64,000 nt of DNA from assembly GCA_041694815.1 (NCBI GenBank), contig JBGFSC010000021.1:1-64000 (forward strand), written 5' to 3'. The DNA is from Elusimicrobiota bacterium (GTDB lineage: Bacteria > Elusimicrobiota > Elusimicrobia > UBA1565 > JACRDR01). Below are positions 1 through 54,771 of this stretch, one piece after another. Positions within the stretch are counted from its first letter, which is position 1. The number at the start of each line of letters is the position of its first letter. The notes under the pieces are model-generated. The model made no database searches and was not told the DNA's origin. It saw only the letters and a list, made by a program, of their open reading frames with translations. A program made the translations under genes and the position numbers.

Positions 1-127
1 TGTCACGAATTCGCGTTCTGTCAGGGAGTGCTTGCGCCTCATTCTTTTTAATTCTTTAAACGACATCCAACAGATTTCTCGTTCTTTCGGTAGGTGGTAA
101 CGATGTGCCCGACGAGTTCTATCCAAA

Positions 128-168
128 TAGGCCCTTAGGCCCCCGGCGGCATAGGCCTTTCGCACCTG
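128..168. promoter_or_regulatory. Tandem GGNCC-N3-GGNCC-type palindromic motif (site A)
   Basis: TAGGCCCTTAGGCCC at 128 and TAGGCCTTTCGCACC at 152, 24 bp apart, upstream of CDS 202. Confidence 0.55.
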
Positions 169-201
169 TAAAAAAGCCTGACGCGGGCCCACCCTTAGGG
201 C

Positions 202-1410
202 ATGAGCGCCATCAAACGCCTGGCCGCGGTACTGACCGCGGCGGCGGTCCTACCCCCCTTCGCCCTCGGGGACGATTCATTCGACAAGCTTCACGCCAAT
301 CCGCGCGAGGCGGTGGTCAATTACGAGGGAGTCAAGGTCAGCGGCCGGGCGGCCATGTACTATAAGGAAGTCCACCGCATGGCCGACGAGCTCAAGTCCC
401 GGGGGCTCGACCTTCGGGAGAGCCTCGACGTCATGGACGACAGCTACGCCGCGGTGTGGGCCAAACTCAGCGTCATCGAAGCCGTCTCCAAGAGCCGTAA
501 CGTCGACCGGCATAACACCCATCTCGAGCAGACCCTGATGTGGGTCGACGGCGTGATGCGCGATCGCGGCAGAAACGTCGCCATCCATACCCATCAGGTC
601 TTTTTCCACCACGCCAAGAACCCCCAGTCCGAGATCAACGAGGGCATCCGCCGCATGGGCAAGACAATCGAAGAGCTCGTCGAGAACCTGGGGAGCGGCG
701 GCAAGGCGGAGGAGAAGCTCGGGAGAATCGACGAGGTGATCCTGGGATTCGACACGCGCGGGCATGAGCCGATCAAACAGTACTTGAAGGGCCAGGAGCT
801 GCAGATCGCCGCAAAGCACGGAAAGCGTTTTCGTTTCGTCTACGTCGACGAGCTCGTCCGGGTCCCTTCGGATACGCAGGCGATGCGCGCCGAGCTCAAC
901 GCCCTGACGGCGCGCTACCGGGGCCAGGGCCTGCAGAAGATCATCGAGGGAGTCATCTACAGCCGCTACGTGGGGGTTCTGCTCGAACTCAAATCCATCG
1001 AATACTTCCTCCAACGGGGCTATGCCGTGCTTCAAAGCGGGCGCGAGCTCTTCGACGCCGAGGGGATGTATATCACCGAGTTGGACGCGGTGGTGCGCGG
1101 CCCCGAGGGCCGAATCGGGATCGTCGAGGCCAAGTCGGCGCGGGTACCGATCCCCCTGGAGCAGGCGTTGGCCGACAAGGTCCTCTACAAGCTCGAGACC
1201 TACGCCAAGCACCGCGCGGCTCTGGAGTCCGCCGTCGGATCCAAGCTCGACGATGTTTTCTTCACCTTCGACGTGGGCTGCGACAACGAGGCGCTGCCGC
1301 CTTTTCTCTCCAGGCGCGAATCGGAGCTTTCGAAGCAATACGCCCTAAATGTCAAGTTCCTTTTCCTGCACAGCGATCCGCAGCCCTGCGCCGAAGCCCG
1401 CCGTCGTTGA
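202..1410 (+). CDS. Exported hypothetical protein with a C-terminal PD-(D/E)XK nuclease-like motif
   Basis: 402-aa ORF; N-terminal signal peptide (MSAIKRLAAVLTAAAVLPPFALG); motif ELDAVV...GIVEAKS. Confidence 0.65.
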   Translation: MSAIKRLAAVLTAAAVLPPFALGDDSFDKLHANPREAVVNYEGVKVSGRAAMYYKEVHRMADELKSRGLDLRESLDVMDDSYAAVWAKLSVIEAVSKSRNVDRHNTHLEQTLMWVDGVMRDRGRNVAIHTHQVFFHHAKNPQSEINEGIRRMGKTIEELVENLGSGGKAEEKLGRIDEVILGFDTRGHEPIKQYLKGQELQIAAKHGKRFRFVYVDELVRVPSDTQAMRAELNALTARYRGQGLQKIIEGVIYSRYVGVLLELKSIEYFLQRGYAVLQSGRELFDAEGMYITELDAVVRGPEGRIGIVEAKSARVPIPLEQALADKVLYKLETYAKHRAALESAVGSKLDDVFFTFDVGCDNEALPPFLSRRESELSKQYALNVKFLFLHSDPQPCAEARRR

Positions 1411-1431
1411 TTATTGTATAATCCGCTCGTT

Positions 1432-1504
1432 GAGCCCGTAGCTCAGTTGGTAGAGCACCTGACTTTTAATCAGGTTGTCGTGGGTTCGAGTCCCACCGGG
1501 CTCA
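1432..1504 (+). tRNA. tRNA-Lys(UUU)
   Basis: Canonical cloverleaf; anticodon arm CCTGA-CTTTTAA-TCAGG; GTTCGAG T-loop; TATAAT at 1417-1422 upstream. Confidence 0.97.
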
Positions 1505-1526
1505 ATGTTTCTGTATCCGGTCTTCC

Positions 1527-1598
1527 GGCCCTATCGTCTATCGGCTAGGACGCGTCCCTTTCAAGGACGAAAGAGGGGTTCGACTCCCCTTAGGGCCA
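1527..1598 (+). tRNA. tRNA-Glu(UUC)
   Basis: Acceptor GGCCCTA/TAGGGCC; anticodon arm CGTCC-CTTTCAA-GGACG. Confidence 0.95.
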
Positions 1599-1616
1599 TT
1601 CTTAACCGTCTATCAG

Positions 1617-1644
1617 GGAACTAATTCTTTGCTCGTTCGTATAT
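1617..1644 (+). promoter_or_regulatory. Putative ECF-sigma promoter of atypical tRNA 1
   Basis: GGAACT(1617-1622)-N15-CGTATAT(1638-1644); same boxes and spacing at 2952-2925 on the minus strand. Confidence 0.65.
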
Positions 1645-1654
1645 TAATTAGACC

Positions 1655-1725
1655 TGCGGGGTAGTTCAACGGTAGAACGGTCGACCGTCAATCGGACAAT
1701 GTGGGTTCGACTCCCACCCCCGCAG
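1655..1725 (+). tRNA. Atypical tRNA, anticodon GUC (Asp) on a tRNA-Asn-like body
   Basis: Acceptor TGCGGGG/CCCCGCA, G73; D arm GTTC/GAAC; T arm GTGGG-TTCGACT-CCCAC; loop CCGTCAA has C33 instead of U33; weak anticodon stem. Confidence 0.8.
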
Positions 1726-1731
1726 CGTCCA

Positions 1732-1771
1732 GAAAGCCGCAATTTCCGTAACGGTCGATATTGCGGCTTTC
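1732..1771 (+). other. Trailer hairpin of atypical tRNA 1
   Basis: GAAAGCCGCAAT/ATTGCGGCTTTC 12-bp inverted repeat with a 16-nt loop partly complementary to the anticodon arm. Confidence 0.75.
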
Positions 1772-1778
1772 GGCCTTC

Positions 1779-1807
1779 TTGACCACTATAGAAGAGTCTG
1801 CTAAGCT
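1779..1807 (+). promoter_or_regulatory. Sigma70-type promoter of small RNA 1
   Basis: TTGACC-N17-TAAGCT with TG extended -10. Confidence 0.7.
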
Positions 1808-1813
1808 ATTGCT

Positions 1814-1868
1814 GACGGTCGACTTGTTGAACTACCGGGCCCCGGGCAACCGGGGCCTTCGTTTTTCT
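1814..1868 (+). ncRNA. Small RNA antisense to atypical tRNA 1
   Basis: 1813-1823 complements tRNA 1680-1690; 1826-1836 complements tRNA 1660-1670; ends in GGCCCCGG-GCAA-CCGGGGCC plus T-tract terminator. Confidence 0.75.
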
Positions 1869-1964
1869 GTGGCGAATAGCGTGCCTTACTCCGGACGCAG
1901 CGATTTCCGGCTGCGACCCAATGCCTTCAGACAGTTGTATAATGACGGGTCGCAGCGCCCAGGC

Positions 1965-2312
1965 ATGGACATCCGACTCGTTAAAACGCCCATCCCCTTT
2001 TCGGAAGTCGCGCAATTCGCCAAAAGCCAGTTCGGCGAAATGATCAAGGCGACGGTCGACGTCCAACGGGCGGTATTGGCCCTCGGGGGAGAGCTCCATT
2101 CCGACGAGGAGGCCCTATTGATCGAGGACGGCTCCAGGCAAGAGGATCTCTGGGGAATCAACATTTACCCGGAACAGTCCGGAGAGGATCGAGTCGAATT
2201 CGACTCGATGATCAACGTCAGGCCCTCGCAAAATAACCGCTCCCGCGGCGTGGAGAACGCCGAAACGAGGGCGCGCATCCTGGAAATCGTCGGCCGACTG
2301 CTCCTCTCCTGA
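1965..2312 (+). CDS. DUF5674-like hypothetical protein
   Basis: Recognised motifs KATVDV...GGELHSD.E..L...GS.QEDLWGINIYP...FDSMINVRPSQNNRSR; ATG at 1965; TATAAT about 22 nt upstream. Confidence 0.75.
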   Translation: MDIRLVKTPIPFSEVAQFAKSQFGEMIKATVDVQRAVLALGGELHSDEEALLIEDGSRQEDLWGINIYPEQSGEDRVEFDSMINVRPSQNNRSRGVENAETRARILEIVGRLLLS

Positions 2313-2635
2313 TGGCCCAGCACGCGGACTTGGCGGCGGGCCGTTGGGCGACGCTCTCCTTACTGGAGCAGATGGGAAATATCGGAAGCGAGATTAGCCG
2401 GGCCCGGCGTTGGCAGTCGAGGGACCCGAAGCTTTTCGACGGCGCGATGATACGCGCGCTCGAATTGCTGGACCTGTCCATCGGCGACCCTCGCTGGCGG
2501 CGCCGACTCAAGGAGTTGCTGCGGGCCCGGGAGCTGCTCTGCGACGCCTGGCTCGGCGGCATGGAATATCAAACGGATCTAGAAGGGCTGGACCGCTACT
2601 TCTTCCACTTCGCCGTTGCGGCCAGGAACTCCTGA
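2312..2635 (+). CDS. Small helical hypothetical protein, partner of the DUF5674-like gene
   Basis: 107 aa, TGATG-coupled; motif RW..LSLLEQMGNIGSEISRA. Confidence 0.75.
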   Translation: MAQHADLAAGRWATLSLLEQMGNIGSEISRARRWQSRDPKLFDGAMIRALELLDLSIGDPRWRRRLKELLRARELLCDAWLGGMEYQTDLEGLDRYFFHFAVAARNS

Positions 2636-2651
2636 GCTAAGGGGCGTAATC

Positions 2652-2708
2652 AAAACTAAGAAGGGCTTCGGTTTTCCCGAAGCCCTCGGTCGTCTAAGGC
2701 TGCCTCTC
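2652..2708 (-). ncRNA. Small RNA antisense to atypical tRNA 2
   Basis: TTGAGAGGCAGC (2710-2699) and TTAGACGAC (2697-2689) complement tRNA segments 2889-2878 and 2908-2900; ends in AGGGCTTCGG-GAAAA-CCGAAGCCCT plus T-rich tail. Confidence 0.75.
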
Positions 2709-2714
2709 AATGCT

Positions 2715-2742
2715 AGTTTAGCAGATCGCCCACATAAGTCAA
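2715..2742 (-). promoter_or_regulatory. Sigma70-type promoter of small RNA 2
   Basis: TTGACT-N16-TAAACT with TG extended -10; shares TCTGCTAARCT with the promoter at 1797-1807. Confidence 0.7.
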
Positions 2743-2796
2743 TATTTTTAATAGGGCGAGTGCTCTGTGCCGTGAACAGACTCGAAGATGGCAGTC

Positions 2797-2837
2797 GGAA
2801 CCGATCAATCTGCCCCCTTACAGCCATGATCGGCTCC
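2797..2837 (-). other. Trailer hairpin of atypical tRNA 2
   Basis: GGAGCCGATCA/TGATCGGTTCC 11-bp stem (one GU) with a 19-nt loop near-complementary to the anticodon arm. Confidence 0.7.
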
Positions 2838-2843
2838 ATAAGG

Positions 2844-2913
2844 CTGGGAGGCCGGGATTCGAACCCGGATAGGCTGTTTGAGAGGCAGCTGTCTTACCGT
2901 TAGACGACTCCCA
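2844..2913 (-). tRNA. Atypical tRNA, anticodon CUC (Glu) on a tRNA-Gln-like body
   Basis: TGGGAG-TC-GTCT-AACGGTA-AGAC-A-GCTGC-CTCTCAA-ACAGC-CTAT-CCGGG-TTCGAAT-CCCGG-CCTCCCA-G; 5' acceptor strand one nt short; C:A mismatch closes the anticodon stem. Confidence 0.78.
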
Positions 2914-2924
2914 GACCCACCTCG

Positions 2925-2952
2925 ATATACGAATAACTCCGCAAAAAGTTCC
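2925..2952 (-). promoter_or_regulatory. Putative ECF-sigma promoter of atypical tRNA 2
   Basis: GGAACT-N15-CGTATAT on the minus strand. Confidence 0.65.
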
Positions 2953-2976
2953 ATCCTCTCGTTGCGTCTGAGCCAA

Positions 2977-3059
2977 TAGGTCCTTAGGCCTATCTTCTGG
3001 TAGGCCCTTTCCCTTAGCTTCTTTTCCCTAAAGGCCCCTGCCCCTGGGCCCCGCGTACC
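2977..3059. promoter_or_regulatory. Tandem GGNCC-N3-GGNCC-type motif (site B)
   Basis: TAGGTCCTTAGGCCTA at 2977, TAGGCCCTTT at 3001, two weaker units about 22 bp further on; TACTAT at 3063. Confidence 0.55.
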
Positions 3060-3072
3060 GCATACTATCGAC

Positions 3073-5367
3073 ATGAAAATAAGAATCCACTTCCTGTTTA
3101 TATTCGGCTCCCTTTTATTCGGCCTTCTGCAACGCGGCGACGCCCTAGTCCCAAAGACCTGCAACGATGAATTCGCTCGCGGCGTCCGCGCGGGCGCCAA
3201 TACGCTACTTGCATTTAATGTTTCTGGAGAGGAGATATACAACGCGTTTGCCAGCGGAACTCAAATTGAATTTGACCTAGAAAGACAGTATGGCCTTCCC
3301 GAGCATATCCGTCAAAGTCTGCCCGCCGTCTTTGTGATGGCGCTGCACGATGACGAATATTACCAAGGGGTACTACGGTGCCTCGATGCGAAGGGCTATA
3401 AGACCGATAATCTCGTCGCATGGGTTAAAAAATATCGGGATTACACCACCTCGGCGGAAATCAAACAACGCTTGGAGGAGTTGAAGCACCTTCAAGCGCC
3501 AAAAATCGCCGACGTAGCCTTTGATGGTCGCCATCTGACTGCTGAGGAGGCAGCGGCCGTGGCCGCAGGCGCCGAGGGTGGTAAAACACCGAGCCTAAAC
3601 GAATTCTCAATCGACCTGACTTCCATGGCCGCCCAGGGGAAGCTCGACCCGATCGAGGGCAGAAAGAACGAAATCAAGGCATTGGTCCAGATCCTGCTCC
3701 GCCGCAGCAAGCCCAACGCCGTGTTGATCGGCGAGCCGGGAGTCGGCAAGACCGCCATCGTCGAGGGCCTCGCCCAGAAGATCGCCGCCGGCGAGATCCC
3801 GGAACTTGCCGGAAAGCGCGTGATGCAGCTCAACATCGGAGCGCTCATCGCGGGGACGAAATACCGCGGGGAATTCGAAGAACGGGTGCAGAATATCATG
3901 AAGGAACTTAAGGCCAGCCCGGACACCATCGTGTTCATCGATGAGTTCCACACCATCATGGGCGCCGGCGCCGCGGAGGGCGCCGTCGACATCTCCAACC
4001 TGCTTAAGCCAGCGATGGCCCGCGGGGAGATCCAGATCATCGGCGCGACAACCTTGGACGAATTCCGCCGCTTCGTCGAGAAGGATGGGGCCTTGGCTCG
4101 GCGCGTGGAAGGGGTGCGGGTGGACGCCCCGACGCCCGAAGATACCCTCGCGATTCTTAAGCGCCTCAAACCGAATTACGAAAAGCACCACAAGGTGAGC
4201 TACAGCGACGCCGCGCTGGAGGCCGCCGCCCGCACGGCTCCCCGCTACCTGCCGCAGCGGCAGCTGCCCGACAGCGCCATCGACCTGATGGACAAGGCGG
4301 GAAGCCTCGCGCGCACCGCTAAAAAAACCGTAGTCGAAGAGGAGGATATACTGGCCATCCTCGCGCAGATGACCGGAATTCCGGTCGACAAGCTCAGCGT
4401 CGACGAGCAGGAACGGCTGGTCCGCATGGAGGAGCACCTGCGCAAGCGGGTCAAGGGGCAGGAACACGTGATCAAGGCGGTTTCGGAAGCGGTCCGGAGG
4501 GCTTATGCGGGGCTGCGGGTCTCGCAGGGCCCCTTGGCCAGTTTCGTCTTCTTGGGACCCACCGGCGTCGGGAAAACGGAGCTCGCGAAAGCCCTGGCCG
4601 AATTCCTTTTCGGCACGGAAAAGGCGCTTATCCGCGAGGACTTGACGAATTACATGGAGCAACATTCCGTCTCAAAGCTTATCGGCTCGCCTCCCGGCTA
4701 CGTCGGCTACGAGGACGCTCCCTTTACCGAGCGGGTGCGCCAGAAGCCGTTTTCGGTCATCCTGCTCGACGAGCTCGACAAGGCGCATCCCGCGGTGCTC
4801 AACATCCTGCTCCCGGTATTAGACGACGGACATCTGACGGACAGCCATGGCAAGACCGTCGATTTCAAGAACACGATCATCATCATGACCTCCAATCATA
4901 TGAGCCAGGCCTTTTTCGCGAAGAAGACGAAATCAGTGGGCTTCCAAAAAGCCGAGCCCCCCGCGCCGCCTAAGGCGGCAAGCAAGGAAGCGATCGTGGC
5001 CGGCTTTAAGAGTTTCCTTAAACCCGAGCAGTTTAACCGCATCGACGAGGTCGTCGTGTTCAATACCTTGACGCCGGAGATACTCGAGTCCATCCTGGAC
5101 CAAATGATCTCGTCGTTCGTCGCGGAGCTGGAGAAAACGAAGAAGGTCCGCTTAGAAGTGAGCCCGCAGGCGCGGGCATTCCTTATCCAACAGGGCTACG
5201 ACCCCGAATTGGGCGCCCGACCAATGCGCCGGGCGATCCAGACCCAGCTTCTGACGCCGCTGTCGATGGAGATCCTAAAGCCCAAGCACGGCTCGCATCT
5301 TGTCGCCAAGCTCTCGGAGGACGGCGGCAGGATCGTGGTCGTCAGCACGGATGGAGGGCGTCAATGA
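3073..5367 (+). CDS. ClpA/ClpC-type double AAA+ ATPase with a signal peptide and non-canonical N-domain
   Basis: Walker A GEPGVGKT and GPTGVGKT; Walker B FIDEFH and LLDELDK; pore loops KYRG and GYVG; SVGF loop; GARPMRR; no M-domain. Confidence 0.92.
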   Translation: MKIRIHFLFIFGSLLFGLLQRGDALVPKTCNDEFARGVRAGANTLLAFNVSGEEIYNAFASGTQIEFDLERQYGLPEHIRQSLPAVFVMALHDDEYYQGVLRCLDAKGYKTDNLVAWVKKYRDYTTSAEIKQRLEELKHLQAPKIADVAFDGRHLTAEEAAAVAAGAEGGKTPSLNEFSIDLTSMAAQGKLDPIEGRKNEIKALVQILLRRSKPNAVLIGEPGVGKTAIVEGLAQKIAAGEIPELAGKRVMQLNIGALIAGTKYRGEFEERVQNIMKELKASPDTIVFIDEFHTIMGAGAAEGAVDISNLLKPAMARGEIQIIGATTLDEFRRFVEKDGALARRVEGVRVDAPTPEDTLAILKRLKPNYEKHHKVSYSDAALEAAARTAPRYLPQRQLPDSAIDLMDKAGSLARTAKKTVVEEEDILAILAQMTGIPVDKLSVDEQERLVRMEEHLRKRVKGQEHVIKAVSEAVRRAYAGLRVSQGPLASFVFLGPTGVGKTELAKALAEFLFGTEKALIREDLTNYMEQHSVSKLIGSPPGYVGYEDAPFTERVRQKPFSVILLDELDKAHPAVLNILLPVLDDGHLTDSHGKTVDFKNTIIIMTSNHMSQAFFAKKTKSVGFQKAEPPAPPKAASKEAIVAGFKSFLKPEQFNRIDEVVVFNTLTPEILESILDQMISSFVAELEKTKKVRLEVSPQARAFLIQQGYDPELGARPMRRAIQTQLLTPLSMEILKPKHGSHLVAKLSEDGGRIVVVSTDGGRQ

Positions 5368-6095
5368 GCGCGCTAAAGGCCGTGTCGCTCGCGATATTTC
5401 TGGCGTCGAGCCTCACCATGCCGGGATTCTCCCAATTCGAAGGTGATGTGATCAATATTCCACTTATACTTACGCCGGAAGAAGAATTTACCCTAGCCAT
5501 GAAGCGCTGGTTACGGGGGCGTGATATTCCCATCGTCAATCCTCCCGAAGAATTGATCGGTGTCTGGAATCTCAGCGCCCAGATATGGAGGATCCGAAGC
5601 AAGCACGAGCGTTCAGGAGACTTTCCTACGGAACGGGAAGAAGGTTCCACTCTCATCAGCCAGCACTGGGGCTGCCTGCGCTTCGTTCCCGCTCGGCACC
5701 CGGGAAACTTGACGGATCAAAATCGGTACGTTCAAGTCGGCGTCGGTTCCAACCTGGTCCCGAATCGCGACCTCGGGCGCAACGAATTTTTCAGTAACCT
5801 GACCGGAACGCGCTACGATTGCGGCGAGCATCTTAGCTTCGCCACGAACTTTGTCCCGAACAGCATCGATGACGCCTGGAGGAACCTTTTTATTTTCTCG
5901 GTGCCCGGTGACGAGATGAGGTTCGGCTGCCGCTTCCTCTCGGAATCCCAAGAGCGCATCGGCTGCCTCGTCAATTATCGCAACGGCACGCACGGGATCG
6001 TCGAATACGTGCGCGAGCAGCCCGGCGAAAAGGCCGCGCGTCGCGGCAGAAGCAGCAACTTCCTGCGGGTCCACCCCGACTGGCAGCCCGAATAA
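5364..6095 (+). CDS. Exported hypothetical protein
   Basis: 243 aa, ATGA overlap with the clp gene, N-terminal signal peptide. Confidence 0.65.
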   Translation: MSALKAVSLAIFLASSLTMPGFSQFEGDVINIPLILTPEEEFTLAMKRWLRGRDIPIVNPPEELIGVWNLSAQIWRIRSKHERSGDFPTEREEGSTLISQHWGCLRFVPARHPGNLTDQNRYVQVGVGSNLVPNRDLGRNEFFSNLTGTRYDCGEHLSFATNFVPNSIDDAWRNLFIFSVPGDEMRFGCRFLSESQERIGCLVNYRNGTHGIVEYVREQPGEKAARRGRSSNFLRVHPDWQPE

Positions 6096-20628: not shown

Positions 20629-22387
20629 TATAAGCCTCCGCTTTTTGGAATTGGACCTCGCCTTCCGGCTTGGCGATAACGCGCAAAAGATAGGGCACGC
20701 GGCTTCGGCTCGCGGCCATCCGGGGGCCCATCACCCCGAGCATGCGCTCATGCACGACCAAACGGTAGCGCACAAGCGCCTTGCCCACTAGCTCCTGCAC
20801 CGACTCGATCTCCACGCGATCGGCTCGATCCGACGGATTGGCCAGGATGCCGATGACCGCGTATCTCTCGAAATCGATCTCGGGAGGCTCATCGTCCCTT
20901 AGGCGGCTCCACAATCGCTTAAAGCTCGAGCCGTTCTTGACGGATCCAAGGAAAATCTTATTTCCCGGGCCCGGCTCGGCCATTCCGGCCCATTCCCGCC
21001 CCACCAGGTCCTTTGCCTTCTCCTCGGTCGGAGCCGGCGGCTGAGCGGCGGGAGGCCTGGCGACGACTGGAATCAGAGGCTGGGCCCGGCGCTGGGAAGG
21101 GATATGGACCACCGGCGGACCGGTGAGATTAACTAACGCCTGTCCCTGCCTTAAGGCATCGAGGAGGGCTGCGAGCTCGTCGGCGGTCAGGCTACCGTCC
21201 ATCCCGACAAGCCTGAAACCGTCCAAGGATATGCCGCGAGCCTTGAGCAACTCCTTAATTGCCTGCCAGATCTGATCGCGGGTCATCGGGGCCGAGGAGA
21301 GCCCTCCGGAGGCGGGGGCCGTCGATGAAGCGGCCTGGGTGACACTGAGCGTCTTGCAATTATTAATGACAATATCATCGAAGAGCTCCACGCAGGCAAT
21401 GGCCAGGCTCTGGCTCTGCCCGGTCGGGAAGCTGGCTGTAAAATCGTATTGACGCGTGTCGCCCGGGTTCATCGAAGCGACGGTGACGGGCGTGTTAGGG
21501 GCCGGCAACCCGCCCAGGCTAAAGCGCAGCGGGAAGTTTCCCTCGCTCGTGCTGCCCTGATCCTTGATCGTGACACGGAAGGGAATGGCCCCGCCGGGAC
21601 CCGGCGCGCCCGCCGCCTCCACCGCGGTGACGGCGATGTCCTTGGTCATGGCCACTAATTGCACCGAAAAGCTGAAGGGGATCTGGCTCACTCCGATCAG
21701 ATTGCCCACCGAGTCGAGGGCCTCGACCTGCCAATAATAGACGGTTCCCGCCGTCAGGCGCTGCAGGGCATCGGTCGGATTTTGGGGATATGTCAGGAAG
21801 CTCTCGCTAGCGGAGGTCGTCTGCACGAAACGGGCGTTGTAGAGCGAAGGATTGTCCGCCACCGTTACGCGGTAGCGCGAGGCGCCGCTGGAGATCCAAC
21901 GAAAGGTCAAGGGATTGTCGGTTAAATCGCGGGCGCCGTTGGGCGGATAGGTCAAGAGTATGTTCGGGGACGAGACGACAAAGCTCGCCGTCTGGGTCAC
22001 GGTCTGCCCGTCTAGCGTTGCGGAAGCCTGGAGATTGTAATTGCCGGGCGAGGTGTAGAACCGGGAGATGGGGATTCCCGAGACCTGGCTGGCGGCGTTG
22101 CCCACGCTTCCGGGGACGGCGTTGCCGTTATGTTCGAACACCTGGGAGCCGTTGGGACCGAAGATCTGGAAGCGAAAAACCGTGCGGCCCGAACTGGCGG
22201 CCCCGTTGAACACCCGCTGCTGTAGGGTGATGGACTCCGTATTGGTGAAGGAGGTCCGAGCCCCCCCGGTTTGGTCCAAGATCGACACCCCTTGGGCCGA
22301 GAGCAGGCCGGCCCAGGCCGTTTTCCCGACAATAGCGGTCAACGCCGCCAGCAACGCCACTGCGCTTAGAGTTTGCGGTCTCTTCAT
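20600..22387 (-). CDS. Exported multi-Ig protein (FN3/CARDB-like; PrcB-C-like tail)
   Basis: Signal peptide; FRW, LTAGTVYYWQVEA; DIAVTAV...NNC; PPEIDFERYAVIGI. Confidence 0.7.
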   Translation of the reverse strand: MKRPQTLSAVALLAALTAIVGKTAWAGLLSAQGVSILDQTGGARTSFTNTESITLQQRVFNGAASSGRTVFRFQIFGPNGSQVFEHNGNAVPGSVGNAASQVSGIPISRFYTSPGNYNLQASATLDGQTVTQTASFVVSSPNILLTYPPNGARDLTDNPLTFRWISSGASRYRVTVADNPSLYNARFVQTTSASESFLTYPQNPTDALQRLTAGTVYYWQVEALDSVGNLIGVSQIPFSFSVQLVAMTKDIAVTAVEAAGAPGPGGAIPFRVTIKDQGSTSEGNFPLRFSLGGLPAPNTPVTVASMNPGDTRQYDFTASFPTGQSQSLAIACVELFDDIVINNCKTLSVTQAASSTAPASGGLSSAPMTRDQIWQAIKELLKARGISLDGFRLVGMDGSLTADELAALLDALRQGQALVNLTGPPVVHIPSQRRAQPLIPVVARPPAAQPPAPTEEKAKDLVGREWAGMAEPGPGNKIFLGSVKNGSSFKRLWSRLRDDEPPEIDFERYAVIGILANPSDRADRVEIESVQELVGKALVRYRLVVHERMLGVMGPRMAASRSRVPYLLRVIAKPEGEVQFQKAEAYNEKLNDGVR

Positions 22388-53759: not shown

Positions 53760-54771
53760 TGGTGCCAGGCATCCACTTTCTACACTTTCTCAACTTTTGG
53801 AACTTTTAGGCCTCCTCATTCGTACTTGAGGTATGGGCCGCCAACCGAGACTGCATTTCCCCGGAGCTATCTTCCATGTGAGCGCCCGCGGCAATGGACG
53901 ACAGACTATCTTTTTTGATTCTCAAGACTGGAACAAGTTTCTTGATATTCTAGGCGAATTAAAACGAATCCGTCCCTTCAAGCTTTACGCTTACTGCCTT
54001 ATGGGCAATCATATCCATTTGCTGATCGAACCTTCTGGTCCCAAATTGTCCCTAATTATGGGCTTATTACTTGCGCGTTATGCCAAGTACCTTAACGCCA
54101 GATTTAAGCGCAACGGGCATGTTTTTCAGAATCGATTTCATGCGCGTCTTTGTGGAAAAGACTCTTATTTCCAACAAGTCATCCGATATATTCATTTAAA
54201 TCCCGTAGAGGCGGGACTTGCCGATGAACCGTCACGGTGGCCGTACTCGGGACACCTGGAATATCTCGGAAAATCTACCCGCCATCTTATCGATCAGGAA
54301 CAGCTTTTATCAATGTTGGGCTCTGATATTAGAACGGCACGGGCCGCCTATAGCCAATTTGTCTTGGGTGCGTTAAAAGACGATTATCTTTCTGTGGGCG
54401 AGACCGAGGACTTATCCAACGCTCGCGAATCTGACATTCACTTTAAAGCCGTCCAAGTCCATGTTAACGAGAAAAGTCTAGATGAAATTTGCGCGGAATT
54501 TAAGCCGATCTCATTGGAAATACTGCGAAGCTCGAGCAAGGTACGGACGGTTTGTCGCGCTCGACATCGTTTTATCGCCTGTGCTTTTGCGGCAGGCTAT
54601 TCGCTCACTGAAGTCGCGGCCTATCTTGGATTATCTTTGTCTGCGGTTTCAAAAGCACTAAACACCAAAGAACCTAAGGCTTGCCTGAGATCAGCTAATC
54701 GAATTTATGTGGACGACGGCAGGCAGCTATTAGAAAGTCAATAAAGTGTAGAAAGTGGATGCCTGGCACCA
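53760..54771. mobile_element. Y1-transposase element bounded by perfect 29-bp inverted repeats
   Basis: TGGTGCCAGGCATCCACTTTCTACACTTT at 53760-53788, reverse complement at 54743-54771; visibly AT-richer than the flanks. Confidence 0.85.
53833..54744 (+). CDS. RAYT-like HUH (Y1) transposase with a C-terminal HTH
   Basis: FHVSARGN, AYCLMGNHIHLL, GHVFQNRF, YIHLNPVEAGL, WPYS. Confidence 0.92.
   Translation: MGRQPRLHFPGAIFHVSARGNGRQTIFFDSQDWNKFLDILGELKRIRPFKLYAYCLMGNHIHLLIEPSGPKLSLIMGLLLARYAKYLNARFKRNGHVFQNRFHARLCGKDSYFQQVIRYIHLNPVEAGLADEPSRWPYSGHLEYLGKSTRHLIDQEQLLSMLGSDIRTARAAYSQFVLGALKDDYLSVGETEDLSNARESDIHFKAVQVHVNEKSLDEICAEFKPISLEILRSSSKVRTVCRARHRFIACAFAAGYSLTEVAAYLGLSLSAVSKALNTKEPKACLRSANRIYVDDGRQLLESQ

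Follow-up and report, generated by a model that had tools for sequence, protein, structure and literature searches.

A putative antisense gate on accessory tRNAs behind a stress-type promoter in Elusimicrobiota

Results

Two accessory tRNAs with an envelope-stress-type promoter

The window considered here is a stretch of 64,000 nucleotides (nt) of DNA from an Elusimicrobiota bacterium (assembly GCA_041694815.1, contig JBGFSC010000021.1, positions 1-64,000), whose genome, called G000 below, is assembled in 54 contigs, is 97.8% complete and holds 48 tRNA genes. Near its start the window carries two accessory tRNA genes, each followed by a trailer hairpin and by a putative small RNA (sRNA) gene whose product would be antisense to the tRNA itself, and these two modules are the subject of the present work. 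tRNA genes were called with ARAGORN and with the Rfam model RF00005, which has a gathering score of 29 bits. The first accessory tRNA, a tRNA-Asp(GUC) on the forward (+) strand, spans 1655-1726 according to ARAGORN and 1655-1725 according to Rfam, with its anticodon at 1687-1689 and a score of 58.7 bits. The second, a tRNA-Glu(CUC) on the reverse (−) strand, spans 2842-2913 according to ARAGORN and 2913-2844 according to Rfam, and scores 45.0 bits. Both scores lie above the gathering score, which makes these genes members of the tRNA family.

The two tRNAs are odd in several respects. The accessory tRNA-Asp has U1-A72, G73, C33, a D-loop of 7 nt, an anticodon stem of four pairs and no encoded CCA. 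The accessory tRNA-Glu(CUC) also has U1-A72 and G73 and lacks an encoded CCA; its C31 and A39 are unpaired, and its acceptor stem is irregular, with a 5' strand one nucleotide short in the Rfam alignment. Canonical genes for tRNA-Asp(GUC) and tRNA-Glu(CUC), with G1 and an encoded CCA, are found on contigs C6 and C54 of G000, respectively, and the D-loop of the canonical tRNA-Asp has 11 nt by our own count, versus 7-9 nt in the odd tRNAs. The window copies of tRNA-Asp and tRNA-Glu(CUC) are not the housekeeping tRNAs, of which second, canonical copies exist elsewhere in the genome.

The same traits recur in a set of 23 complete modules from 18 genomes, described below, which is the basis of all the comparative counts given here. 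The odd tRNAs depart from the pattern of a canonical elongator, which has U33, five pairs in the anticodon stem and a regular acceptor stem of 7 bp; position 33 is C in 8/23 and A in 1/23. A preliminary description of the window had called the anticodon stem weak, and it is so across the set: fewer than five pairs were counted in 18/23 odd tRNAs versus 2/46 canonical tRNAs of G000, with mean stem energies of −2.36 and −4.64 kcal/mol, respectively. U1:A72 is present in 20/23, including all 15 copies with the anticodon GUC, and G73 in 19/23. Nucleotide −1 is able to pair with nucleotide 73 in 18/23, and further pairs between leader and trailer lengthen the acceptor helix. All 23 have the T-loop GTTCRA, none has CCA after position 73, and the D-loops measure 7-9 nt.

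A perfect palindrome of 12 nt lies within the accessory tRNA-Asp at 1677-1688, running from the 3' strand of the D-stem into the anticodon. Parts of the tRNA, of the hairpin loop and of the sRNA seed consequently hold one 8-mer in both orientations, and the orientation of that 8-mer is ambiguous.

Each accessory tRNA is preceded by a motif of the type read by extracytoplasmic function (ECF) sigma factors, as found by a genome motif scan. The putative promoter of tRNA-Asp occupies 1617-1642 (+), with GGAAC at 1617-1621, a 16-nt spacer and CGTAT at 1638-1642, and that of tRNA-Glu(CUC) occupies 2952-2927 (−), with GGAAC at 2952-2948, a 16-nt spacer and CGTAT at 2931-2927. The motif ends 12-13 nt before the 5' end of each tRNA. 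The pattern GGAAC-N16/17-CGTA[TC] stands 5' of 19/23 odd tRNAs and of 0/44 canonical tRNAs. It is found 42-51 times in the genome, depending on the strictness of the pattern, and shuffled half-site controls gave 2-81 matches, so that the raw motif count alone is no argument. The motif also precedes the ECF sigma gene of G000 (Sigma70_r2 and r4_2), behind which lie a zf-HC2 anti-sigma gene and then a MucB/RseB/LolA-like gene; by its predicted domains this cluster is an operon of the rpoE-rseA-rseB type. Orthologues of the sigma gene carry the motif at their 5' side in 10/10 genomes examined. Judged by the promoter form that they share with this autoregulated sigma promoter, both window tRNAs would belong to an ECF (sigma-E-like) regulon. 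A second ECF paralogue, 45% identical, is encoded in G000, and either of the two sigma factors may thus read the promoter.

Approximately 35-40 GGAAC-N16-CGTAT promoters are predicted throughout G000, one of them in the window at 53799 (+), and many of these sites lie 0-10 nt before a start codon, as in leaderless mRNAs. The genes behind them, named by eye from their N-termini, include four retropepsin-like paralogues, HNH/DUF222-like proteins, SpoVG, ComM, an IS200-like transposase, an MT-A70 methylase and XRE-type regulators. This is an unusual regulon for a sigma-E-like factor.

Predicted antisense sRNA genes downstream of the accessory tRNAs

A short predicted sRNA gene lies approximately 90-130 nt 3' of each accessory tRNA, on the same strand. 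The one that follows tRNA-Asp would give an RNA of about 55 nt (1813-1868, +), closed by a terminator hairpin at 1837-1858 and a U-tract, from a sigma-70-like promoter at 1779-1807 (+; TTGACC at 1779-1784, 17-nt spacer, TAAGCT at 1802-1807) that was found by a regular expression. The one that follows tRNA-Glu(CUC) would give an RNA of about 58 nt (2709-2652, −), with a terminator at 2687-2661 and a U-tract, from a sigma-70-like promoter at 2742-2715 (−; TTGACT, 16-nt spacer, TG-extended TAAACT) that was found by the promoter scan. The seed begins some 6 nt past the −10 element, and the 5' 22-25 nt of each sRNA are antisense to the anticodon arm and the D-arm of the tRNA upstream. For the Asp copy, 1813-1823 is the exact complement of tRNA positions 1680-1690, which cover the 5' strand of the stem and the loop with its entire anticodon, and 1827-1836 matches 1660-1669 (acceptor end and D-arm) by exact complementarity. 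For the Glu copy, 2709-2699 complements the anticodon loop and the 5' stem strand, with an exact match of 12 nt to 2889-2878 when the preceding T is counted, and 2697-2689 complements the D-arm at 2908-2900.

This complementarity was measured by a self-antisense score, the local alignment of the reverse-complemented tRNA with its 220-nt trailer. The two trailers scored 28 and 24 against their own tRNAs, each ranking first of 48 trailers, with an off-diagonal mean of 15 and a 99th percentile of 22; only these two of the 48 tRNAs of G000 have a trailer strongly antisense to themselves. RNAduplex on whole trailers was tried and abandoned in favour of local alignment, given that long internal loops let many tRNAs reach z < −2. 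The arrangement TTGAnn-N16-18-TAnnnT just 5' of the seed occurs in 20/23 modules versus 4/44 canonical trailers, and G000 has just two terminators of the type seen on the sRNAs, each of them belonging to such an sRNA. In the window, the terminator scan gave no intrinsic terminator between the tRNA and the terminator of the sRNA. A cmscan of window positions 1-6000 at E ≤ 1 assigned no Rfam family, T-box included, to trailer or sRNA, and returned only the four tRNAs and one sub-threshold plastid match on the strand opposite to tRNA-Lys. A search for mRNA targets by exact complements gave many matches of 10-14 nt, as chance expects in a G+C-rich genome, and none was outstanding. RNase III is encoded in G000 and Hfq was not found there, which fits antisense control through a long duplex that does not depend on Hfq.

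G000 holds a third sRNA gene of the same build, free-standing and with no tRNA upstream (L023; contig C19, about 20,735-20,840, − strand). It has a TTGACA-N17-TATATT promoter, a seed of 27 nt and the terminator of the family. Its seed would be able to pair with the window tRNA-Asp by blocks of 9 and 12 nt, and a 13-nt piece just 5' of its promoter complements the T-arm of the same tRNA.

Trailer hairpins

Between each tRNA and its sRNA promoter lies a hairpin. The preliminary description had placed two hairpins 6 nt after the discriminator and had read each loop as resembling the reverse complement of its own anticodon arm. The letters bear out both hairpins and their position, which was measured as 5-7 nt after nucleotide 73. 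Hairpin 1, after tRNA-Asp (+), has a 12-bp stem (1732-1743/1760-1771) and a 16-nt loop (1744-1759); hairpin 2, after tRNA-Glu(CUC) (−), has a 12-bp stem (2838-2827/2807-2796) and a 19-nt loop (2826-2808). Neither is an intrinsic terminator, given the loops of 16 and 19 nt, the lack of a U-tract on the 3' side and their absence from the list of the terminator scan. In loop 1, an 8-mer matches tRNA 1681-1688 as its exact complement and four further letters complement 1693-1696; only 33 of 20,000 loop shuffles match the arm as well, and its own arm is the best among the 48 of the genome. Loop 2 has 6 and 5 letters complementary to the two strands of the anticodon stem, with G-U pairs between them, and this resemblance, although present, lies within chance when taken alone. 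In the window, the complementarity of loops to arms is only modestly above chance, and the decisive evidence is comparative.

Recurrence and co-variation among relatives

The search for relatives covered 41 related genomes and 401 genomes of the phylum, and 55 regions were fetched. The 23 complete modules come from G000, from fifteen genomes that represent three families of the same order and, by one genome, another class, and from two contigs of metagenome-assembled genomes that were reached by a terminator-motif scan, one of which is labelled Elusimicrobia; the 18 genomes are probably all Elusimicrobiota. The order of elements is constant, namely ECF promoter, odd tRNA, optional hairpin, sigma-70 promoter, seed and terminator. 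The predicted sRNAs measure approximately 40-75 nt and carry at the 5' end the complement of the anticodon loop and of the 5' stem strand, frequently with that of the D-arm as well. The anticodon is GUC in 15 modules, CUC in 4, and GCC, GCU, GAC and GAU in one each, and both seed and loop follow it. The tRNA bodies fall into two D-arm types that do not track the anticodon, from which it follows that anticodons have been switched repeatedly.

When genome contigs were scanned with a 19-nt core of the terminator, at least 122 loci were found, and among the matches listed two carried modules (L055 and L079). The odd tRNAs of these loci score 65.8 and 61.5 bits (L055) and 48.5 bits (L079) on RF00005. 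The core itself is a generic G+C-rich terminator motif present in many phyla. Among viral contigs, the joined pattern of seed end and terminator gave 89 loci with no tRNA, and no module was found by this pattern.

Co-variation was assessed by 20,000 random re-pairings of seeds or loops with arms. The seeds of the 23 modules score on average 24.5 against their own arm and 11.8 against the others, and none of the 20,000 re-pairings reaches the observed sum. Positions 28-36 of the tRNA are matched by the seed in 22-23 of the modules, and the columns each show several types of pair, the complementary windows having been chosen as the best match. At position 31 there are 10 C-G, 6 U-A, 4 A-U and 2 G-C pairs; at position 33, 14 U-A, 7 C-G and 1 A-U, with one unpaired; at position 34, 19 G-C and 4 C-G; and at position 35, 18 U-A, 2 C-G, 2 A-U and 1 U-G.

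The hairpin zone was counted as present when at least 35 nt separate the tRNA from the sRNA promoter, which is the case in 17/23 modules. Zones score 15.3 on average against their own arm and 11.0 against others, and again 0/20,000 re-pairings reach the sum. The loop pairs with tRNA positions 28-34 in 16-17 of the 17 modules, with changes of the same kinds as the seed and compensatory changes at positions 31, 33 and 34. In effect, the loop is a reverse complement of the arm in which the stretch opposite positions 36-38 is shortened. The preliminary description had named a lack of co-variation between loops and arms in homologues among the outcomes that would speak against its proposal, and co-variation is what these modules display; selection for loop-arm complementarity is thereby supported.

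Three additional copies were observed outside the set of complete modules. One, in G033, is cut by the end of its contig. The other two, L025 and L026 (contigs C23 and C5 of G023), consist of an odd tRNA(GUC) with a similar insertion of approximately 70 nt inside the T-loop, which may be intron-like or a hairpin insertion. Both keep an intact ECF promoter and an intact sRNA on the downstream side; neither gene is called by ARAGORN, and one of them scores 32.7 bits with Rfam.

Tandem modules were seen at L032 (contig C34 of G010), where GUC is followed by GCU, and at L055, where GUC is followed by GAC. At L032 the same sigma-70-type promoter and a paralogous short open reading frame (ORF) come after each module. 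In other families of the same class, four loci (L160, L164, L165 and L174) show a canonical tRNA-Gly (UCC or GCC) followed by a short piece antisense to its own T-arm and anticodon arm, with a direct repeat of the tRNA 3' end about 110-150 nt further on. These pieces may represent another kind of small element, with tRNA-Gly as the RNA that it targets or regulates.

Predicted folding

The dimer of tRNA and sRNA is predicted to be more stable than the monomers in all 23 modules, by 6.7-32.7 kcal/mol; the gain is 19.2 kcal/mol for the Asp copy of the window and 13.7 kcal/mol for the Glu copy. The first terminator after each tRNA is that of the sRNA, and the ECF-driven primary transcript therefore probably carries the tRNA together with the antisense seed. 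In the minimum-energy fold of such read-through transcripts (1648-1868, +, and 2920-2652, −) the 5' half of the tRNA pairs with the seed and no cloverleaf is formed, only the T-arm and the trailer hairpin staying local (z of −7.0 and −4.4; 0/200 shuffles as good). Transcripts that end just past the hairpin fold as a cloverleaf with an extended acceptor, followed by the hairpin. The preliminary description had suggested that the precursor may fold back on its anticodon stem and delay maturation. Fold-back is indeed predicted, mainly through the sRNA seed, which that description had missed; a lock in cis by the hairpin loop itself and a delay of maturation are not supported here.

Genomic surroundings

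The accessory tRNA-Asp lies in a cluster with tRNA-Lys(UUU) (1431-1505, +; 79.1 bits on RF00005) and tRNA-Glu(UUC) (1527-1598, +; 58.9 bits), both also called by ARAGORN. Directly 5' of the cluster there is an ORF of 402 amino acids (202-1410, +) with no Pfam match at E ≤ 0.01. The ORFs that cover 1655-1870 and 2650-2913 are long spurious frames across the RNA genes and not conserved small peptides.

A DUF5674 gene (1965-2312, +; Pfam E 4.5e-33) and an ORF of 107 amino acids without a Pfam match (2312-2635, +), which overlap by one base, sit between the two convergent tRNA modules, and at least 13 related genomes have them too, with DNA identities of 66-74%. They were considered as a possible part of the system and set aside, for in the relatives they lie on other contigs than the tRNA matches.

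A Pfam search of 127 ORFs around 14 loci revealed no conserved protein neighbour. Genes for lipopolysaccharide and the outer membrane recur near modules, including GT9 heptosyltransferases (3 loci), LpxK, BamA with Skp, and SecA with Lnt; these fit an envelope-stress regulon and prove nothing. No integrase or recombinase gene was present in the 8-10-kb neighbourhoods scanned.

Discussion

An antisense gate on an accessory tRNA

Our results point to a module in which the target of antisense control would be a tRNA. We judge it fairly probable that the locus is an antisense gate, formed by a cis fold-back and a trans-acting sRNA, on a stress-induced accessory tRNA. An alternative sigma factor of the ECF, sigma-E-like type would transcribe an extra tRNA whose anticodon stem is weak and whose leader is paired with its trailer. 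The loop of the trailer hairpin would present the complement of arm positions ~28-35 and often 39-43, and the sRNA, made from its own housekeeping-type promoter, would carry at its 5' end the complement of positions ~27-38 and, in many copies, of the 5' strand of the D-arm. In cis, the primary transcript would fold back and sequester the 5' half of the tRNA, mainly through the seed and possibly through the hairpin loop too. In trans, the free sRNA, produced constitutively, could enter the exposed anticodon loop, invade the weak stem and unfold the tRNA, and RNase III could then cut the duplex of tRNA and sRNA. The net effect would be a threshold, with the tRNA available only once its ECF-driven synthesis and processing outrun the antisense pool. 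As for the hairpin, it might serve as a second, loop-presented antisense element, keep the sRNA off the arm by competition, or act as a signal for processing.

Several observations weigh against this proposal. The two promoters, like the read-through and the sRNA, are predictions from the sequence, and the sigma-70 promoter of the Asp sRNA is poor, its −10 element matching at 3/6 positions and falling below the threshold of the promoter scan. The inhibitory direction of the effect is an assumption made by analogy. Single complements of the seeds, 10-14 nt long, are common elsewhere in the genome, and other targets are possible. The modules were found through their similarity to those of the window and are related to one another, so that the counts and the permutation figures overstate independence. 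Moreover, G-U pairs are not clearly enriched among the mismatches (16/47 in seeds, 5/43 in loops), and selection at the level of RNA is thus not separated from selection at the level of DNA. With respect to the hairpin, loop 2 alone is matched by 1,241 of 20,000 shuffles under Watson-Crick scoring, and one other tRNA arm scores higher than its own. The hairpin cannot be essential to the module, since 6/23 modules are without it. Contact of the loop with the arm in cis would be of the pseudoknot type, which is beyond RNAfold, and would be sterically awkward for the L shape of a folded tRNA, in which the acceptor end and the anticodon are far apart.

Alternative explanations

The pairing evidence is symmetrical and silent as to which partner is regulated. 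The roles could then be reversed, the sRNA being an effector with mRNA targets and the ECF-induced, tRNA-like transcript a sponge for it under envelope stress. A sponge RNA derived from a tRNA precursor has a precedent in the leuZ 3' external spacer, which is reported to act on RybB and RyhB (bioRxiv 10.1101/2021.04.25.441314), and the genome does contain other complements of the seeds, of 12-14 nt. Nevertheless, the seeds track the arm of their own module down to the letters of the anticodon, which would not be expected if conserved mRNAs were the targets; the full architecture of a tRNA, superfluous in a mere sponge, is kept at 45-66 bits on RF00005; and the loop of the trailer hairpin, being of one sense with the seed, is unable to bind the sRNA. 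We regard this reversal as distinctly unlikely. Another function for the antisense elements would be to guide a modifying or processing enzyme to the arm of the precursor, or to chaperone the folding of a weak-armed tRNA. In archaea, C/D-box or H/ACA guides act on tRNAs, and some of them are carried by the pre-tRNA itself. The pairing of the loop in two blocks, 28-35 and 39-43, with 36-38 left free, loosely recalls the pocket of a guide, and antisense guides for tRNA modification are described for archaea (PMC6009581). Boxes of the C/D or ACA type are not evident by eye in the sRNAs, for which reason membership in either guide class was rejected, and the cmscan of positions 1-6000 returned, besides tRNAs, one sub-threshold plastid match and no guide family. 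Pairing of the seed over 22-25 nt would open up the entire tRNA instead of presenting one nucleotide, and no protein gene is conserved beside the modules. We know of no guide ribonucleoprotein system of this kind in bacteria, and a guide or chaperone role seems very unlikely.

The complementarity might also be a by-product at the DNA level, left by inverted partial copies of tRNAs that arose through recombination or integration, or reflecting recombinase sites. tRNA genes are common targets of integration, the seed does look like an inverted and internally deleted copy of the tRNA 5' half, the neighbourhoods of the modules vary and modules are sometimes in tandem; the lack of a clear G-U enrichment among mismatches agrees with such an origin. 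A relic would be expected to decay, whereas the seed keeps an exact match of 10-16 nt to arms that have diverged, and it always lies between a conserved sigma-70 promoter and a terminator. This, together with the scanned neighbourhoods that were free of integrase and recombinase genes, makes a DNA-level origin very improbable in our view. As for plain coincidence, that is, ordinary tRNA genes which happen to be followed by ordinary hairpins, loop 2 alone would be compatible with it, and the palindrome at 1677-1688 inflates matches in either orientation. Its probability is negligible in the face of the restriction to 2/48 tRNAs, the recurrence in 18 genomes and the compensatory changes, all of which contradict it.

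What the tRNA may be for

The decoding role of the accessory tRNA is a matter for more tentative argument. The closest canonical tRNA of G000 is tRNA-Gly(UCC) for 10/23 odd tRNAs, and not tRNA-Asp, -Glu, -Asn or -Gln; the origin of the tRNA body was accordingly dropped as a clue, the closest canonical tRNA being uninformative about identity. [quoted passage not shown] GatB is present in G000, and asparaginyl- and glutaminyl-tRNA synthetases were not found there above the cut-off, which implies that Asn-tRNA and Gln-tRNA must come from the amidation of tRNA-bound Asp and Glu. In bacteria, GatCAB recognises its substrates by U1-A72 and by the absence of a supernumerary D-loop nucleotide (PMC1635274, PMC2811023). 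Both determinants are found in the odd tRNAs, with U1:A72 in 20/23 and D-loops of 7-9 nt, charging itself being hypothetical; all 15 GUC copies combine U1-A72, G73, G10 and a D-loop of 7-9 nt.

If the GUC copies are charged with Asp, GatCAB would turn it into Asn, and the tRNA would place Asn at Asp codons; for the CUC copies, the same route would lead to Gln at GAG. The modules could then be deliberately mis-decoding tRNAs, induced by envelope stress and otherwise silenced by their own antisense RNAs, in what would amount to an RNA-only pair of the toxin-antitoxin kind. We consider this doubtful, if worth stating. The 19/23 modules with GUC or CUC fit it, and the copies with GCC, GCU, GAC and GAU do not.

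Relation to known systems

The preliminary description had drawn an analogy to the fold-back inhibition of hok/sok-type mRNAs. In hok/sok, the target RNA is kept inert by a 5'-3' fold-back, a constitutive promoter of its own drives a short antisense RNA, RNase III takes part, and copies are scattered and sometimes orphaned. The module would share the antisense RNA with a promoter of its own, a likely involvement of RNase III and the scattered and orphan copies, and a fold-back by the 3' end is predicted for its putative read-through transcripts; at the level of sequence, an antisense RNA with its own promoter and with complementarity to its target is found in 20/23 modules. On the other hand, the target here is a tRNA and not an mRNA, it is placed under a stress sigma factor, it contains no ORF for a small toxic peptide, and the antisense gene lies downstream on the same strand, whereas that of hok/sok overlaps its target on the opposite strand. 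With a tRNA as its apparent target and no toxin ORF, the module is not a member of the hok/sok family, and the comparison holds as an analogy, a better one than the preliminary description could have foreseen.

MicA, RybB and MicL are sigma-E-dependent sRNAs of enterobacteria. The module resembles them in that a non-coding RNA appears to belong to the regulon of an autoregulated envelope-stress ECF sigma factor, encoded beside an anti-sigma and an RseB-like gene. It differs in that the ECF-driven RNA is a complete tRNA, that the pairing sRNA has a housekeeping-type promoter and that Hfq was not found. The sRNAs bound by the leuZ spacer act on mRNAs, and the body of the tRNA is not involved. 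There is a likeness to this 3' external transcribed spacer of glyW-cysT-leuZ, a tRNA precursor trailer reported to pair with small RNAs (RybB, RyhB); the difference is that trailer and sRNA both complement the tRNA body in the present case. T-boxes, like the module, are RNA elements that read a specific tRNA by pairing with its anticodon. They do so from an mRNA leader, by 3-4 nt at the anticodon and by the NCCA end of a folded tRNA, whereas pairing in the module would extend over 10-25 nt, which is incompatible with a folded tRNA, and Rfam gives no T-box in positions 1-6000. Extra tRNAs whose anticodon and identity disagree, for which regulated mistranslation has been proposed, are described as tRNAProA/ProRSx in Streptomyces and others (PMC10404621, PMC10365949). 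Those tRNAs come with a dedicated synthetase, whereas here no protein is linked, GatCAB would be the source of the mismatch, and a layer of dedicated antisense control is present.

In the literature searched, which did not extend to most subscription journals, no bacterial sRNA dedicated to one tRNA, no ECF-dependent tRNA gene and no self-antisense tRNA precursor was found. Control of RNA by antisense pairing and fold-back is itself known; a tRNA as its target would be a new class of target.

Significance

tRNAs are usually treated as constitutive housekeeping molecules. If the antisense gate proposed here is real, a tRNA can belong to a stress sigma regulon, and it can have an antisense sRNA of its own as well as a precursor that locks itself, extending the logic of hok/sok from mRNAs to tRNAs. 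It would also mean that the anticodon arm can be tuned, by a weak stem and C33, so as to be invadable. The modules may serve as a new RNA family for the annotation pipelines applied to Elusimicrobiota-like genomes, and their compact and portable design, consisting of promoter, tRNA and antisense RNA, could be of use for switchable tRNAs in synthetic biology. For organisms that rely on GatCAB, they are a candidate for a programmed, stress-gated mistranslation of Asp to Asn and of Glu to Gln, and if the tRNA should prove to be a gated mis-decoder, it could be categorically new.

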